Positions 4,800-27,389 of a stretch of 27,389 nucleotides of DNA are shown piece after piece. Source of the DNA: a phage. Position 1 is the first letter of the stretch; every line of letters starts with the position of its first letter. Under the pieces are notes generated by a model that made no database searches, had not been told where the DNA came from, and worked only from the letters and a program-made list of their open reading frames with translations. The translations under genes were made by a program, and so were the position numbers. Location of the stretch: NCBI GenBank assembly GCA_011967385.1, contig GCA_011967385.1_4516.1; one strand, written 5' to 3'.

Positions 4800-5900
4800 T
4801 TACGCTGTGAAGATTTTATCCCACATCGCAACAACTGCATCTCGGTTATACTTCTTCCATACTGCTTCAGCACGTTTAACTCGAGCTTCGTATGTGTCAG
4901 TGAATTCTAATACAGCCTTTGTGTAAAGCGCAACTACTTCTTTCTTAGGAGTAGAGGAATCAATTTCTACACGCACAGTATCTGGGTCGTATTCGAATGT
5001 CGCATGCGGATAATCCTTAAAAACTAGCTGAATTACAGGGACACCTTTAGAGATGGCTTCAATAGAACTATTCTCTACCGTACCCGTGTCAGGACACGTA
5101 TTAATAAGTGCTTTAGCTGTTTTAAGACGTTCCATGATTTCACTGTGTGGAGCATCAATAATAACAGGATACTTAGCTGGTGGTGCCCATTTGCTTGGAC
5201 AATAACCAATACCATTTTCGCCTAGTGCTTTAATCGCTTCAAGAGCAACATCAGTACGACGCATTTTAGTGTCATAACGTTGTGCACTAATAATCAGATC
5301 AGTCGCCGGAAGAACTTCAGGTTTCTCATTCAAACAAATAACCGGATAATCTTCGGCTTCAAACAACGGATTTGCTCGCCAATAATCATAATCAATTTTG
5401 TCAGTCAGACCTGAAGTCATATAACAATATTTGCGTTCAAATTCACGGAAGGCTTTAGTAGGAGCATAACTCTTACCACCGTTCTTATGAATTTGAATAG
5501 TCTGGTCCCAAATTTGAACAATGCCACGAGATACCGGCTCAAATGGTGTTGCCATAAAATTCTTATGAACTTTAGAGAGACCTGCGTCTTTAATTGCCTG
5601 AACGGTTAGTTTAGTCGGTTCCATTGTAACAACAAAATCGTATTCATGGATGCCGGCTAGTTCAACAATCTTACGAGCCATAGTATAACTCATACCTAGA
5701 CTGAATTTAGTCAGATGACCAACAGGATGGTGTGTAACTTTCCAGTCACCAAACGTGTCATTATCAAAGCCGATATAATCAATATCAGCACCGATGGACA
5801 CAAGATATTTCAACACATTTAAATGTACTGCTTCAAGACCACCTTGTACACGTTCTGGGTTAAACGGGACTGCGCGAGATGGGATAAACATAACTTTCAT
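4800..5900 (-). CDS. GT-B fold glycosyltransferase (GT4-like), candidate DNA sugar transferase
   Basis: 366 aa; N-terminal MKVMFIP...ERVQGGLEAVHLNVLKYL and C-terminal ...TGTVENSSIEAISKGVPVI resemble GT4 donor-binding motifs; AAGG SD; sits between 39 and rIIA.1 where T4 has no such gene. Confidence 0.7.
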   Translation of the reverse strand: MKVMFIPSRAVPFNPERVQGGLEAVHLNVLKYLVSIGADIDYIGFDNDTFGDWKVTHHPVGHLTKFSLGMSYTMARKIVELAGIHEYDFVVTMEPTKLTVQAIKDAGLSKVHKNFMATPFEPVSRGIVQIWDQTIQIHKNGGKSYAPTKAFREFERKYCYMTSGLTDKIDYDYWRANPLFEAEDYPVICLNEKPEVLPATDLIISAQRYDTKMRRTDVALEAIKALGENGIGYCPSKWAPPAKYPVIIDAPHSEIMERLKTAKALINTCPDTGTVENSSIEAISKGVPVIQLVFKDYPHATFEYDPDTVRVEIDSSTPKKEVVALYTKAVLEFTDTYEARVKRAEAVWKKYNRDAVVAMWDKIFTA

Positions 5901-17052: not shown

Positions 17053-17097
17053 AATTAACTCCTTTGTTGTTTAATTACAGGTGTATTTATAACTTAA

Positions 17098-17619
17098 TTA
17101 GTAACCATTATCCTGACGTTCAAAGTTGTGTTGGTTTTTCAAGTAGTAAAGTTTAAAGATTTCTTCAGCCGAAAGACCTAGACCTTGGAACATATTCAGA
17201 ACAAAGTGGAGGATATCAATCATTTCGAATTTAATTTCGAGCTGGTCTTCAGGAGACAACTCATCAATACGACGATTACGGAATTCAGCATGTTGTGCTT
17301 TCCAAGGCTTCCATACACTGCTGGCAGCTTTTTCACCATTGCTCATACCACCAAGTGAAGTCAGCAGTTCACGGAATTCATCATCAATATAATCTTTCTG
17401 ATTACGCAGCCAATCAACAACATCACCAGCAGTAGCCAATTCGTCAGGATGTTTGTTATGTTCAGGCTTGTCATTTGCCAGACGAACCTGTAAAGATTTC
17501 TGCATATCAAGCATTACCTGCAGTGGGTCTTTATCTTCGTGAATCAGAGCATTAAAATAAGCTTCTTCTGCTTTATCAACACCAGAAATAAGTTGTGAAC
17601 ATTCGTTAAAGTGTGCCAT
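17098..17619 (-). CDS. 56: dCTP pyrophosphatase (dCTPase, MazG-like)
   Basis: About 173 aa from the ATG at 17617-17619 (MAHFNEC...), AAAGGA SD; DPLQVMLDMQ, IDDEFRELLTSLG, EIFKLYYLKN match recalled T4 gp56. Confidence 0.85.
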   Translation of the reverse strand: MAHFNECSQLISGVDKAEEAYFNALIHEDKDPLQVMLDMQKSLQVRLANDKPEHNKHPDELATAGDVVDWLRNQKDYIDDEFRELLTSLGGMSNGEKAASSVWKPWKAQHAEFRNRRIDELSPEDQLEIKFEMIDILHFVLNMFQGLGLSAEEIFKLYYLKNQHNFERQDNGY

Positions 17620-17708
17620 TATTTTTCCTTTCAATTCAGTATAAGAGAGTTAATTCTAACATTAATTTTATAAAGCGTAATAAATAATAAGGTAACTAAG
17701 GAGATATT

Positions 17709-21409: not shown

Positions 21410-21598
21410 TTATCGAAAATCTGCTTCAAAAACTTTCTCGTCATTAACAAATGCTTTAACTAATGCATTGTTCACTTCAGCAAGTTGTACCGCCACCCAC
21501 TCGATTTCTTCACGATCACCTGATAACATAATATCTTTAGTGAACATCTCACCGCTTTTAAACCAACCGATAAAAGTAACTTTAGTTAATTTGCTCAT
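21410..21598 (-). CDS. dmd: Dmd antitoxin (inhibitor of host RnlA/LsoA RNase toxins)
   Basis: About 62 aa from the ATG at 21596-21598 with GAGGA SD; KVTFIGWFK...MFTK...VQLAEVNNALVKAF..D.KV.E.D.R matches recalled T4 Dmd (60 aa). Confidence 0.75.
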   Translation of the reverse strand: MSKLTKVTFIGWFKSGEMFTKDIMLSGDREEIEWVAVQLAEVNNALVKAFVNDEKVFEADFR

Positions 21599-23881: not shown

Positions 23882-24244
23882 TTAAAAGAATTTAAATTTT
23901 TTCTTGGTTCGTTCATTAAAAGCTTGTTGTACCTGCATTGTAACACATTTTTCAACATGCGGCGCAAGTTCTGCTTTTCTGTCCTGGTCAAGAACTGCAA
24001 AGTCCATTACGATTTTACCATCAACCCAATCTAGTTTTGTAATATAGACTATATGATGAGAACCGTCTTCAAGTGTAATCAGAATCTCTTGAATGACATT
24101 TTCCATTGCTGAACGGATAATTTTAAGAGATTCATTAAACACTCGTTCTTTGCGAATGTCCTCCCCTTCCGAAGAAGGGGATTCATCAACGATTTCTAGA
24201 TTTAAATCATCGAGATTATTCATCGAAATCTTCCATTTCGTCAA
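23882..24244 (-). CDS. 40: Protein in the position of T4 gene 40 (head vertex assembly chaperone), 120 aa
   Basis: ORF track; lies between 41 and uvsX as in T4; sequence identity not verified. Confidence 0.55.
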   Translation of the reverse strand: MTKWKISMNNLDDLNLEIVDESPSSEGEDIRKERVFNESLKIIRSAMENVIQEILITLEDGSHHIVYITKLDWVDGKIVMDFAVLDQDRKAELAPHVEKCVTMQVQQAFNERTKKKFKFF

Positions 24245-25154
24245 GGTCGTTTTCTATATCTGCTGCAGATGGAGCATCAGAAGTTTTAACCGGAACTTTA
24301 GTTGTTGCTTTGCAATTAATAAGGTCGTTAACTGCGTCATCAACTTCTTTAATAGAAGAGATAGCACCTAGTTTATATTTAGTTTCAATTGCATCTCGGA
24401 AAGGTTTGTGTTTAAACAACGGTCCCCAGAATTCTACACAATCGGTAGCTTTAGCGCGCCATGATTTCTCTTCACGAATCATTTCACCTGTTTCTTCGTC
24501 AAGGAATTCACGAGCATACCAACCGGCTTTAGGTTTAACTACAAAACCAATTTCAGTTGCCATTTCTAGCAAGCCACTGAATGGGTCAATACCGCCATCA
24601 AAATTAACCGTGATCGGGAAAGTAGATTTCTCTTTAACCGTACGAGATTTTTCTGCTTTCAACGTGAAGTCATAACCGGTCAATTCTGTACCTTCTTTAA
24701 CCTGACGTTTAGAGATAAAGAATACAGTGTTAGCAGAGTAAAGAATACCTGTACCACCACCCATAATCTCTTTAGGATATAGTCCGCCGATTTCCATTGC
24801 TGTATGGTTGATTGCAACACACGGAATATCTTTAATAGTCAGATACGGGGTCACAATACGGAAAAGAGATTTAAGTGCCTTAGCACGAGACATATCACCT
24901 ACGACTTTCTCGTTCAACGCATCTTCGGTTTCTTTCTTAGATGCAGTATTACCGATTGAATCGATAAAGATAATAACTTTATCACCGCGTTCAATTGCAT
25001 CAAGCTGATTAGTCATATCAACTTTAAGTTGTTCGACGGACTGAATTGGTGTATGAACTACACGGTCTAAATCAACACCCATCGAACGGAAGTAAGATTC
25101 TGAAGCACCAAATTCCGAATCATAGAACAAACAGATTGCATCATTATATTTTAC
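24216..25154 (-). pseudogene. uvsX: uvsX recombinase (RecA-like) homolog lacking the N-terminal 80 or so residues, including the Walker A motif; no ATG start
   Basis: Homology to recalled T4 UvsX starts at ...YNDAICLFYDSEFG (T4 ...YPDAVCLFYDSEFG) and continues to the acidic C-terminus; Walker B VIIFIDSIGN present; in-frame TGA (25155-25157) and TAA (25161-25163) directly upstream. Confidence 0.7.
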
Positions 25155-25220
25155 TCATGTTTAAAAGATAAGATGATTATATACTAAGGGTTATACAGCA
25201 TTTAAAACTTTAAATGGCTC

Positions 25221-25769
25221 TTAACGAGCCCATTTAATGATTTCTGTAATCAAATTATTACGTTCGCTTGCATTAAATCCTATAACTTTGTTAGAACCAT
25301 CATGATTAAGTAATTGATACGTTTGGATTTTGTTATGAATTGCAAACTCTTCAAAATATGAAATGACTGTATTAAAACCGAATGAAGACAAAGTAATAAG
25401 GTCGTCTTCAAAGCTTTCAGTCATTTCGTTACGTGTTAAAATAATTGTGAACACATCATGGTTTTGACAAAGACGAACATAATCCTGTTCATAAACGTCA
25501 AGAACCGAGTCCGCATCTTGTCGAATACGTCCATAAACCCAGTTACTAATATATCCACGGTCTAATAGATAAATCTTAGTAGGGTCTAAATAATTCAACA
25601 TCGTTTCGAAACAGCCAACTTCATTTCGAGACTTAACATCGAAACGCCCATCAACTGTTCGTTTAGGGAAATCAATCTTTACATATCTTTCACTAATTTC
25701 CATTATGTCATTAATGAAAGTTGTTTTACCGGCATTATCTGGGCCATCTACTAAAATAATTTTAGCCAT
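25221..25769 (-). CDS. P-loop nucleoside/nucleotide kinase-like protein, 182 aa
   Basis: N-terminal Walker A ILVDGPDNAGKTTF; LLDRGYIS resembles the DR(Y/H) motif of thymidylate/dNMP kinases; GAGGA SD; start 1 nt after the upstream stop. Confidence 0.65.
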   Translation of the reverse strand: MAKIILVDGPDNAGKTTFINDIMEISERYVKIDFPKRTVDGRFDVKSRNEVGCFETMLNYLDPTKIYLLDRGYISNWVYGRIRQDADSVLDVYEQDYVRLCQNHDVFTIILTRNEMTESFEDDLITLSSFGFNTVISYFEEFAIHNKIQTYQLLNHDGSNKVIGFNASERNNLITEIIKWAR

Positions 25770-25770
25770 T

Positions 25771-26670
25771 TTATTCCTCGATTACGACATCTTCGTATTT
25801 AGGTATATTATACGGCGAAGAAATTAAAGCATTAAAGTAGATGAACTCACCAAGACCTGGATGGAATACTTCTTCAGGATTTTCGAAATATTGAATCTTC
25901 GGACGTCCTTTAAGAATTTGATAGTACTCAGTTTTAGTTGGATTAAAAATTCGAATCAGCGCTTCTTCAGGATACTTATTTCTGTCGAAACTATTATTTG
26001 GATCGGTTATATAAAGTGGTTGACCTAATTGAATTGCGCATTCAACCACTTGTTCAAAACGATAGCATGGGTCACTAATTCGAAATGGATGAAAAATACC
26101 ATCTAGATGAATAGGAGCCAAATCACCTACAAGACGCTGCATGACGGAAGGACGTATAACTTTCTGCGTTACGATAATCTTATTACCATCTGCACCTGCG
26201 TTAACCAGCACTTCTTTTTGACGTTCATTCAACACAGTAGTTTGAAGTGAACGATTAACCGACAACATGTCGGTTTTTAAGAATTCATCAATATAAAAAC
26301 GTGGTTTATTAGGGTCTGCAGTGATATTGAAATTGAATTCTACATCAAAAGCGCCATCATATCCAGTGATATCTGTGATTAGAAAATCACAATCATAATA
26401 AGCAATTAATGAATCAACCACAAATTCATTTTCAGACCAGAAATATTTACGAGTGTTATACGCGTTATCTTTATACCATAATGGAACAAACTTAAATTCC
26501 GGGAAAAGACGTTCACATTCTTTAATATCAGATGCATTACGTGGATATGTAATCACATCACCCGGATTAGCACGGTGCAAATGAAGTTGGAAGTTGCCAT
26601 CCTTAAGGATAGCATACTGTCCAGTTTCATAAGACCGCATACTCAAGATTGGTACGCGGAAAATAGCCAT
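25771..26670 (-). CDS. Orphan protein, 299 aa, no motif recognised; occupies the position of beta-glucosyltransferase in T4
   Basis: ORF track; ATG overlaps the stop of the upstream gene (TAATG). Confidence 0.6.
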   Translation of the reverse strand: MAIFRVPILSMRSYETGQYAILKDGNFQLHLHRANPGDVITYPRNASDIKECERLFPEFKFVPLWYKDNAYNTRKYFWSENEFVVDSLIAYYDCDFLITDITGYDGAFDVEFNFNITADPNKPRFYIDEFLKTDMLSVNRSLQTTVLNERQKEVLVNAGADGNKIIVTQKVIRPSVMQRLVGDLAPIHLDGIFHPFRISDPCYRFEQVVECAIQLGQPLYITDPNNSFDRNKYPEEALIRIFNPTKTEYYQILKGRPKIQYFENPEEVFHPGLGEFIYFNALISSPYNIPKYEDVVIEE

Positions 26671-27389
26671 TAGTCAAGGAATCCTTTAACATAATCAAAA
26701 TCACGTTCAAACACATGGGCACTTACCATGGTATGAGTATAATCACCAACTTCTACACCGCATTCGTTAGCGATATAATGAAGTAATTTTCCTTGGAGAT
26801 AAAAATCCAACTGCATAACAACAGCACAGTTCTGAGAACGCATATGGCAGTGTGTATAAAGCTTACCATCACGAATATAATAAGTAACTGAGTCAGTACA
26901 TGGATATTCAAGCGTTTCGTCTGAATCAAGCAAAGCCTGATCAGAACTTTCTAGAATTTGGAACACAACTCTTCGGGAGTTAGGCTTCTCTTTAAGTTCT
27001 TTTAGAAGAGCTGGTAATTGGGCCGCAATGCGAGGACCATAGAAAGTGTTGAAGTTCGCCGGCAAAACATCTGATTTTGGTTTAGAAATAAATTTAGCGA
27101 CATTAGGATATGCCTTAAACGCTTCTTCTGCGTTGGTACCACCAGAAATCATAAACTTCCAGAAGTCTTCGGCATATTCATAAGAGATGCGGTTAATACG
27201 TGGATCGGTCATTTTGAATGATGATGGAGTGTCAACAACTACTGTCATAGACCCAATTTCATTACAACGTCCAATACGAGAATCAGTTACGAATTCCGGG
27301 TTTTCTAAAATTTCACGATTGACTGCTTTAAATGCGGTTTGAAAATCTGCGGCTTTGATATATTTCATTGTGTTATGTTTTCCCATGTT
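26670..27389 (-). CDS. Thymidylate synthase / dCMP hydroxymethylase family enzyme, partial (N-terminus beyond the window end); gene 42 position
   Basis: NSRRVVFQ, active-site region PCTDSVTYYIRDGKLY...HMRSQNCAVVMQLDF and HVFERDF align with TS-family motifs (catalytic Cys, RS.D); appears more divergent from recalled T4 gp42 than its neighbours are from their T4 orthologs. Confidence 0.7.
   Translation of the reverse strand, partial: NMGKHNTMKYIKAADFQTAFKAVNREILENPEFVTDSRIGRCNEIGSMTVVVDTPSSFKMTDPRINRISYEYAEDFWKFMISGGTNAEEAFKAYPNVAKFISKPKSDVLPANFNTFYGPRIAAQLPALLKELKEKPNSRRVVFQILESSDQALLDSDETLEYPCTDSVTYYIRDGKLYTHCHMRSQNCAVVMQLDFYLQGKLLHYIANECGVEVGDYTHTMVSAHVFERDFDYVKGFLD

Follow-up and report, generated by a model that had tools for sequence, protein, structure and literature searches.

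A three-gene cassette at the 42/beta-gt locus

The window analyzed here comprises 27,389 nucleotides of phage DNA (NCBI GenBank assembly GCA_011967385.1, contig GCA_011967385.1_4516.1), the right end of which carries a minus-strand cassette of three open reading frames (ORFs) that very probably represents the central part of a known DNA hypermodification pathway in RB69-like phages, the one for arabinosyl-5-hydroxycytosine (ara-5hoC). The window DNA matched more than 150 Mosigvirus (RB69-like) genomes at 97-98% identity, Bas46, HY126 and RB69 among them, and its source, judged by this similarity, is a Mosigvirus. The first gene (26670..27386, minus strand) encodes a 238-aa ortholog of RB69 gp48 and of the corresponding HY126 enzyme, which we read as a flavin/O2-dependent thymidylate synthase (TS) homolog producing 5-hydroxy-deoxycytidine monophosphate (5-hydroxy-dCMP, 5hodCMP). 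The second (25771..26670, minus strand) encodes a 299-aa ortholog of RB69 gp46:47, a predicted GT-B fold glycosyltransferase (GT1) proposed to act as the base-proximal (alpha) arabinofuranosyltransferase on 5-hydroxycytosine, and the third (25221..25769, minus strand) a 182-aa ortholog of RB69 gp45, a P-loop nucleotide kinase with the thymidylate kinase (TMK) fold whose substrate is presumably modified dCMP. With RB69 gp48, gp46:47 and gp45 the three proteins share 99%, 98% and 98% identity, respectively, and with their HY126 counterparts 98-99%. The pathway was already published in 2025-2026 for phages at 98-99% identity, and the cassette described here is another member of it and not a discovery.

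All three ORFs had been called in an initial annotation of this DNA, and each was recovered on the minus strand at the same place and length; the translational coupling suggested there is likewise visible in the sequence. The synthase and GT1 genes meet at GAC TAATG GCT, where one base is common to stop and start, the GT1 and kinase genes are separated by a 1-nt spacer (GAA TAA A ATG), and the second and third genes are each preceded by a Shine-Dalgarno-like motif, AGGA or GAGGA. Scanning the cassette region for terminator-like sites returned none, promoter-like sites there were no more frequent than in shuffled sequence, and a scan for RNA elements and repeats in and around the cassette gave no Rfam family and only short repeats at chance level. 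The window ends 3 nt upstream of the ATG of the 238-aa ORF, which had been described as a fragment; the ORF is complete and equals PDB chain 9iqc_A and the coding sequences (CDSs) of Bas46, RB69 and HY126 in length, and truncation was rejected on the full-length match to 9iqc and to the RB69 and HY126 orthologs.

Synteny comparison placed the cassette at the position held by 42 and beta-gt in T4, as had been proposed; the T4 order given with that proposal (42-beta-gt-uvsX) was correct, apart from the omission of the homing endonuclease gene segA between beta-gt and uvsX. The expectation that divergence from T4 would be much greater in the cassette than in the core genes beside it also held, since the 238-aa protein shares 25% identity with T4 gp42 over 218 residues, compared with 86% for gp41, 83% for gp40 and 68% for the remaining part of UvsX. 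The further suggestion that the segment was acquired found no support in base composition: GC content is 0.33-0.37 in the cassette and 0.34-0.40 in the rest of the window, and a recent horizontal acquisition visible in composition was rejected in the absence of a GC anomaly.

The DNA flanking the cassette matched 1089 records, compared with about 345 for the kinase and the 299-aa protein. Close orthologs in T-even phages with glucosyl-hydroxymethylcytosine (glucosyl-hmC), which would have contradicted the initial annotation, were not found, and the roughly 345 records belong to arabinosylating T4-like phages. A modification module different from glucosyl-hmC had been suspected in the initial annotation from the kinds of gene present, and the pyrimidine hypermodification cassette of the ara-5hoC pathway answers to that description. 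The three genes are contiguous in 13 of the 14 T4-like IMG/VR loci with full flanks, and also in Thanatos. Essentiality values for them were looked for in a transposon-mutagenesis preprint on Bas46 and LC53 and were not found there. The labels given to the cassette in public GenBank entries of related phages disagree with one another and are for the most part out of date: the synthase is labeled thymidylate synthase, dCMP hydroxymethylase or hypothetical, GT1 is labeled hypothetical, and the kinase is labeled thymidylate kinase or hypothetical, with all three genes hypothetical in the HY126 record.

The thymidylate synthase homolog

The Pfam model PF00303 (Thymidylat_synt) matched the 238-aa protein with 56.9 bits against a cut-off of 24.3, over profile positions 110-220, and this hidden Markov model (HMM) match above the gathering score, along with the conserved catalytic Cys, places the protein in the thymidylate synthase superfamily. 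Alignment with E. coli ThyA and T4 gp42 was used to map individual residues. The catalytic Cys (C146 in ThyA, C148 in gp42) corresponds to C163, and R183/S184 align with ThyA R166/S167, which bears out the TS family and the catalytic Cys/RS.D region recognized in the initial annotation. Two further positions follow gp42, with ThyA N177 replaced by D194 (D179 in gp42) and ThyA L143 by E160 (D145 in gp42). At two others the protein departs from both enzymes: ThyA D169, retained as D171 in gp42, is N186, and the folate-site residue W80, retained as W82 in gp42, is A97.

These replacements set the protein apart from canonical ThyA (dTMP synthase), from which it differs at all four positions (N177->D194, D169->N186, L143->E160 and W80->A97), and its best NCBIfam thymidylate synthase equivalogs scored 42-68 bits against cut-offs of 108-405. 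It is also unlike the T4 gp42-type hydroxymethylases, as D194 and E160 are present and N186 and A97 stand in place of D169 and W80. The combination of D169N, N177D and the catalytic Cys (N186, D194 and C163) is that of the 5hodCMP synthases, among them RB69 gp48, DLP3 gp80 and the HY126 enzyme; for these synthases D169N has been proposed as the diagnostic residue and validated on nine further homologs (Lee et al., NAR 2026, PMC13326640). The motifs EYPCT and MRSQN...D, moreover, occur in 13 of 13 trio-bearing T4-like IMG/VR loci.

The closest solved structures, PDB 9iqc/9ir2/9iqu, matched the protein with an E-value of 8e-161 and differ from it at 5 of 238 residues, and identity reached 99% to RB69 gp48 and 98% to the HY126 enzyme. 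Expression of RB69 gp48 in E. coli led to 5-hydroxy-dC (5hodC) in DNA, with uptake of 18O from 18O2 and co-purification of flavin mononucleotide (FMN), and the product, with a mass of 243 Da, or 245 Da under 18O2, was 5hodC rather than 5-hydroxymethyl-dC (5hmdC) (PMC13326640). For the HY126 enzyme, a flavin-bound crystal structure and an in vitro reconstitution are cited from He et al. 2026 in the same paper. Because its characterized orthologs are 98-99% identical, the diagnostic residues are in place and the PDB entries match, the 238-aa protein, as read from its sequence, is a 5hodCMP synthase and not a hydroxymethylase.

The initial annotation had instead taken it for a pyrimidine hydroxymethylase. 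In this reading the TS homolog would act on dCMP (or dUMP), the hypermodification would be based on hmC, for instance as arabinosyl-hmC, and the kinase would activate or process the hydroxymethyl nucleotide. Membership in the TS superfamily, the dCMP-specifying D194 and the acidic E160 at ThyA position 143, both as in T4 gp42, are compatible with it, many GenBank records carry the label "dCMP hydroxymethylase", and RB69 DNA was first reported to contain arabosyl-hmC, i.e. arabinosyl-hmC (PMC6024577). That earlier hmC assignment was called erroneous in later work (PMC13390438), however, and the 99% identical RB69 gp48, an O2- and flavin-dependent maker of 5-hydroxy-dCMP, yields 5hodC and not 5hmdC. 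Besides the identity to gp42 of just 25%, the Asp and Trp that gp42 keeps are lost here as N186 and A97. We regard hydroxymethylation at this locus as highly improbable and the proposal as already largely refuted.

The glycosyltransferase and the nucleotide kinase

Sequence comparison offered no family for the 299-aa protein: no Pfam glycosyltransferase matched at E <= 1 in 50 family members, no NCBIfam model matched, phmmer sequence search found no PDB entry, hhalign against the second glycosyltransferase of the window (GT2) returned a probability of 0.5%, and BLASTP against T4 beta-gt gave an E-value of 3.6 over 23 residues, that is, no sequence similarity. The GT-B identity came from the predicted structure alone, whose two Rossmann-like domains could be superposed on GT-B enzymes of solved structure in a GT4-like arrangement, with fold-comparison scores of 17.7 for sucrose-phosphate synthase 6kih, 16.9 for BshA, 16.0 for PimA, 14.4 for the HY126 glycosyltransferase 9iqz and 13.2 for T4 alpha-glucosyltransferase. 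What had been listed as an orphan lacking any recognizable motif is thereby predicted to be a GT-B glycosyltransferase. The ORF is intact in the window, whereas the RB69 record splits the 98% identical gp46:47 gene into ORF046c and ORF047c, a split that Lee et al. attribute to a sequencing error (PMC13326640).

The distribution of GT1 points to its place in the pathway. GT1 matched 349 phage records, among them those of Thanatos and of Serratia/Prodigiosinella phages such as LC53, while GT2 was found in 212, restricted to phages of Escherichia, Shigella and Acinetobacter; the Thanatos and Serratia phages carry GT1 without GT2. Thanatos and LC53 have been reported as mono-arabinosylated, and the Escherichia, Shigella and Acinetobacter groups as carrying di- or tri-arabinose. 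Because GT1 occurs in mono-arabinosylated phages and GT2 just in the di-/tri-arabinose groups, GT1 is the candidate for the first arabinosyltransferase. Its orthology and its position between the synthase and kinase genes likewise agree with DNA arabinosyltransferase 1, the enzyme represented by RB69 gp46:47 and DLP3 gp79, and fold, synteny and phyletic pattern together suggest that this enzyme adds the first arabinose.

An ortholog in Thanatos (TH1_063; TH2_066 in Thanatos-2), which shares 47.5% identity and also lies between a TS homolog and a kinase gene, raises another possibility, namely that the 299-aa protein is a UDP-pentose pyrophosphorylase making the activated sugar and not a transferase decorating the base. 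This ortholog converted UTP and xylose-1-phosphate into UDP-xylose in vitro and did not glycosylate plasmid DNA, dCMP, dCTP or cytosine (PMC12838424). The transfer assays, all negative, were nevertheless run on unhydroxylated acceptors, and we infer that carry-over of E. coli uridylyltransferase in the His-tag preparation was not excluded. The pathway, furthermore, already has a bifunctional kinase/uridylyltransferase (RB69 gp52:53, HY126 AfhE) that has been shown to make UDP-arabinose (UDP-Ara), and the GT-B fold of the 299-aa protein also argues for a transferase; a pyrophosphorylase role is improbable in our estimate. On this family the literature is in conflict, as Thanatos-2 TH2_066 (locus L004, 4995-5897) was published as a UDP-xylose pyrophosphorylase and Lee et al. 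place the family as first arabinosyltransferase.

The 182-aa protein contains the Walker A motif G9-P-D-N-A-G-K-T-T17 and the sequence L68-L-D-R-G-Y73, the two motifs (GPDNAGKTT and LLDRGY) already picked out in the initial annotation, and residues G9, D11, N12, G14, K15, T16, D70 and R71 are invariant in 25 members of the kinase family. P-loop, DR motif and TMK fold are all present, and the closest solved structures are thymidylate kinases. The protein fell short of the curated TMK cut-offs, with no match to PF02223 and 16.4 bits against 83.25 for TIGR00041, and hhalign of the family with E. coli Tmk aligned the P-loop and nothing more. For the kinase, 344 phage records were found, and their hosts are distributed like those of the GT1 records. 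We hold, with moderate confidence, that its most likely function is that of cognate kinase for the modified deoxynucleoside monophosphate (dNMP). A role as 5-hydroxymethyl-deoxyuridine (5-hmdU) DNA kinase is unlikely in view of the TMK-type nucleoside monophosphate (NMP) kinase fold.

Another conceivable role for the 182-aa protein would be that of an ordinary dTMP kinase serving the general nucleotide supply, whose adjacency to modification genes would be incidental. The thymidylate kinases among the nearest solved structures fit such a role, as do the label "thymidylate kinase" of its family in phrog_761, the weak PF02223 matches of 13 of the 25 kinase relatives (best E 2e-4), and the DRxxxSxxxY and FP motifs, which we take to resemble the NMP-site motifs of TMK. 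Set against these are the missed HMM cut-offs (TIGR00041 and PF02223), the fact that gp1 phosphorylates dTMP in T4-like phages, and a distribution in which the kinase occurs solely where GT1 does, in 344 records as opposed to the 1089 T4-like records matching the flanking DNA. We consider general dTMP supply a poor candidate for its function.

Two IMG/VR contigs carry related kinases in other settings. On a 163-kb T4-like contig (L020, 3995-4525), a homolog with 54% identity is located between uvsX and the gene for DNA polymerase, with no TS homolog or GT1 within 4 kb, so that contiguity of the trio does not extend to all lineages. On a 47.8-kb contig (L024, 4001-7555), a TMK-like kinase of distant relationship (32% identity) precedes a MazG-like pyrophosphatase, a 282-aa ORF without Pfam match, a TS homolog keeping D169 (MRSCD...D) and a dCMP-deaminase-domain protein. 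Because D169 is kept, this TS homolog is not read as a 5hodCMP synthase, and the locus looks like a different, uncharacterized pyrimidine module in a non-T4-like virus. Because a distant TMK-like kinase stands beside a TS homolog there as well, a general role of such kinases on modified dNMPs is suggested.

The proposed pathway, its other genes and related systems

Further genes expected of the pathway are found elsewhere in the window and directly beyond it. The second arabinosyltransferase, GT2 (4800..5900, minus strand, 366 aa), lies with rIIA on one side and a topoisomerase gene on the other and is orthologous to RB69 gp3 and to the crystallized HY126 enzyme; it matched PDB 9iqz/9ir0 ("phage HY126 glycosyltransferase") with an E-value of 2e-250 and RB69 ORF003c with 98.9% identity, and its role as adder of the second arabinose was proposed in PMC13326640 and PMC13390438. 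A dCTP pyrophosphatase (dCTPase) of the T4 gp56-type, MazG-like, the probable supplier of dCMP to the synthase, is encoded at 17098..17634 (minus strand), with an uncertain start codon, as the annotation of Shigella phage ESh27 maps to 17619. Its Pfam matches were weak (dUTPase_2 1.3e-6, PRA-PH 2.5e-3), the ORF is syntenic with an ESh27 CDS annotated "dCTP pyrophosphatase", and RB69p028 is given as the dCTPase in PMC13326640. In Bas46, RB69 and HY126, the genes for arabinose-5-phosphate isomerase, the bifunctional kinase/uridylyltransferase and a phosphatase lie directly upstream of the synthase gene, which in the source phage would place the UDP-arabinose genes just past base 27389, the right end of the window.

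Taken together, these genes suggest the following route. The dCTPase (17098-17634) would convert dCTP to dCMP, which the 238-aa TS homolog, with flavin and O2, would hydroxylate at C5 to 5-hydroxy-dCMP, as shown for orthologs with 98-99% identity, in which 5hodC was also found in DNA. A nucleotide kinase and the host nucleoside diphosphate (NDP) kinase would then give the triphosphate, for incorporation by the phage polymerase in place of dC. For the first phosphorylation the RB69 kinase of the T4 gp1 type has been shown to act, with RB69 gp159, the gp1 ortholog, used experimentally to convert 5hodCMP to 5hodCDP (PMC13326640), and the 182-aa TMK-fold kinase is the putative kinase of the module itself. 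The 299-aa GT-B enzyme would subsequently move the first arabinofuranose (Araf) from UDP-Araf to the 5-hydroxyl, as its fold, synteny and phyletic pattern suggest, and the 366-aa GT2 (4800-5900) would add the second arabinose. In orthologous systems, mono- and di-arabinosyl-5hodC were shown in virion DNA, with UDP-Araf as donor for the later glycosyltransferase steps. The modified DNA would be resistant to restriction enzymes and CRISPR nucleases.

Several published results weigh against this route as drawn. In addition to the in vitro UDP-xylose pyrophosphorylase activity of the Thanatos ortholog of GT1, single glycosyltransferases, tested with the DLP3 enzymes, did not transfer onto 5hoC-DNA, and the data of Lee et al. 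cannot distinguish addition of the first arabinose to the mononucleotide from addition to DNA (PMC13326640). Likewise, since a gp1-type kinase already phosphorylates 5hodCMP (PMC13326640), a cognate-kinase role of the 182-aa protein could be redundant.

The same results give room to a pre-replicative order of events, in which GT1 would arabinosylate 5hodCMP, the TMK-fold kinase would handle the bulky ara-5hodCMP that a gp1-type kinase cannot take, the polymerase would incorporate the glycosylated deoxynucleoside triphosphate (dNTP), and the second arabinose alone would be added on DNA. Where 5hodCMP is already handled by the gp1-type enzyme, the presence of a second kinase calls for an explanation, the inactivity of single glycosyltransferases on 5hoC-DNA is a point that the authors left open (PMC13326640), and GT1 and kinase co-occur almost perfectly (349 and 344 records) as translationally coupled genes. 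The isoelectric point (pI) of GT1 is also acidic (5.05; family median 5.2), compared with 9.05 for the DNA-acting T4 beta-GT; this is weak evidence, as GT2 has a pI of 6.3 and its homologs act on DNA. To our knowledge, moreover, all characterized phage DNA glycosylations are post-replicative, following the T4 paradigm. The DLP3 glycosyltransferases act on DNA for the third sugar (PMC13326640), the kinase gene of contig L020 is not adjacent to TS and GT1 genes, and the kinase of L024 accompanies a TS homolog without a glycosyltransferase-like neighbor, which fits a simple modified-dNMP kinase. This order of events appears unlikely to us; in the standard model GT1 would act on DNA. If true, the pre-replicative order would provide the first known sugar-bearing dNTP that is a natural substrate of replication.

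The window agrees closely with the RB69 gp45/gp46:47/gp48 genes and the HY126 afh pathway, as genes, order, overlaps and locus are alike at 98-99% protein identity, the solved synthase differs at 5 residues, and GT2 is also present in the window with 98-99% identity. No substantive difference was found in the cassette; the GT1 ORF is intact in the window, and the adjacent uvsX gene is shortened by 266 bp. The ara-5hoC pathway is reportedly also the subject of He et al., Nat Chem Biol 2026 and Mahler et al., Cell Host Microbe 2025.

The uvsX gene (24216-25160, minus strand) carries an out-of-frame, inactivating deletion of these 266 bp relative to Bas46, ESh27 and RB69, with the junction at about 25138-25151 between imperfect 14-nt direct repeats, GCATC(A/T)TTATATTT. 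Lost with it are the ribosome-binding site and the start codon, together with about 80 codons that include the Walker A motif; the frame is shifted, and a 304-aa ORF without a plausible start is left. The deletion was absent from the closest 30 Mosigvirus records, the junction had no match in IMG/VR, and the cause is either an isolate naturally defective in recombination or an assembly error. Upstream of the uvsX remnant, at 25176-25202 on the minus strand, inspection by eye revealed a TGCTGTA sequence that we take to be MotA-box-like, followed 12 nt on by TATAAT, which presumably forms a T4 middle-promoter-like element. Two further differences from ESh27 were noted, one of about 255-280 bp absent at about 17097-17110, corresponding to a small ORF situated downstream of the dCTPase gene, and one of about 205 bp absent near 21417, corresponding to a 70-aa ORF next to dmd that Bas46 also lacks. 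Both look like ordinary variation in accessory ORFs.

Comparison with T4 shows the same locus, between the DNA polymerase/imm region and uvsX, occupied in T4 by 42-beta-gt-(segA)-uvsX, and a shared logic in which an enzyme of the TS superfamily makes dCMP oxygenated at C5 ahead of replication and the sugar is afterward added from a UDP-sugar by a GT-B enzyme. T4 gp42 and the synthase of the window share the Asp that specifies dCMP and an acidic residue at the position of ThyA 143, whereas the latter alone shows D169N and lacks W80. The chemistry would differ accordingly between hydroxylation with flavin and O2, giving an ether link, in the window pathway and hydroxymethylation with methylene-tetrahydrofolate, giving a CH2-O link, in T4. 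The sugar would be arabinofuranose from phage-encoded enzymes in the former and is glucose (glucosyl-hmC) in the latter, and T4 has neither a beta-gt similar in sequence to the 299-aa protein nor a TMK-fold kinase at the 42/beta-gt locus.

A module of the same three parts in the same order is described in Rhizobium phage RL38J1 (Pootjesviridae), where gp214-gp216 comprise a TMK-like kinase, galactosyltransferase 1 and a D169N 5hodCMP synthase, the last of which was shown to make 5hodC (PMC13326640). This likeness is taken from the published gene description; RL38J1 belongs to another virus family and attaches hexoses, galactose and then glucose. The initial annotation had drawn an analogy to the thymidine hypermodification pathways, in which a TS-superfamily enzyme and a P-loop kinase are also clustered. 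In those pathways (Lee et al. 2018/2021), the kinase is said to phosphorylate the 5-hydroxymethyl group in DNA and so to create a leaving group. The pathway proposed for the window differs in that a UDP-sugar donor makes activation of the acceptor unnecessary and in that its kinase has the nucleoside-monophosphate-kinase (TMK) fold.

For the annotation of this phage family, the assignments given here imply that most GenBank labels of the cassette need revision, as "thymidylate synthase" and "dCMP hydroxymethylase" would be wrong and "hypothetical protein" and "thymidylate kinase" are uninformative. The substrate of the kinase and the acceptor of GT1, nucleotide or DNA, can be tested with these exact genes. 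In the synthase, a thymidylate synthase fold would have been repurposed from folate-dependent one-carbon transfer to flavin-dependent hydroxylation, and the sugar-coated cytosines to which the cassette would lead are of a kind that blocks restriction enzymes as well as the Brig1 glycosylase and certain CRISPR systems.

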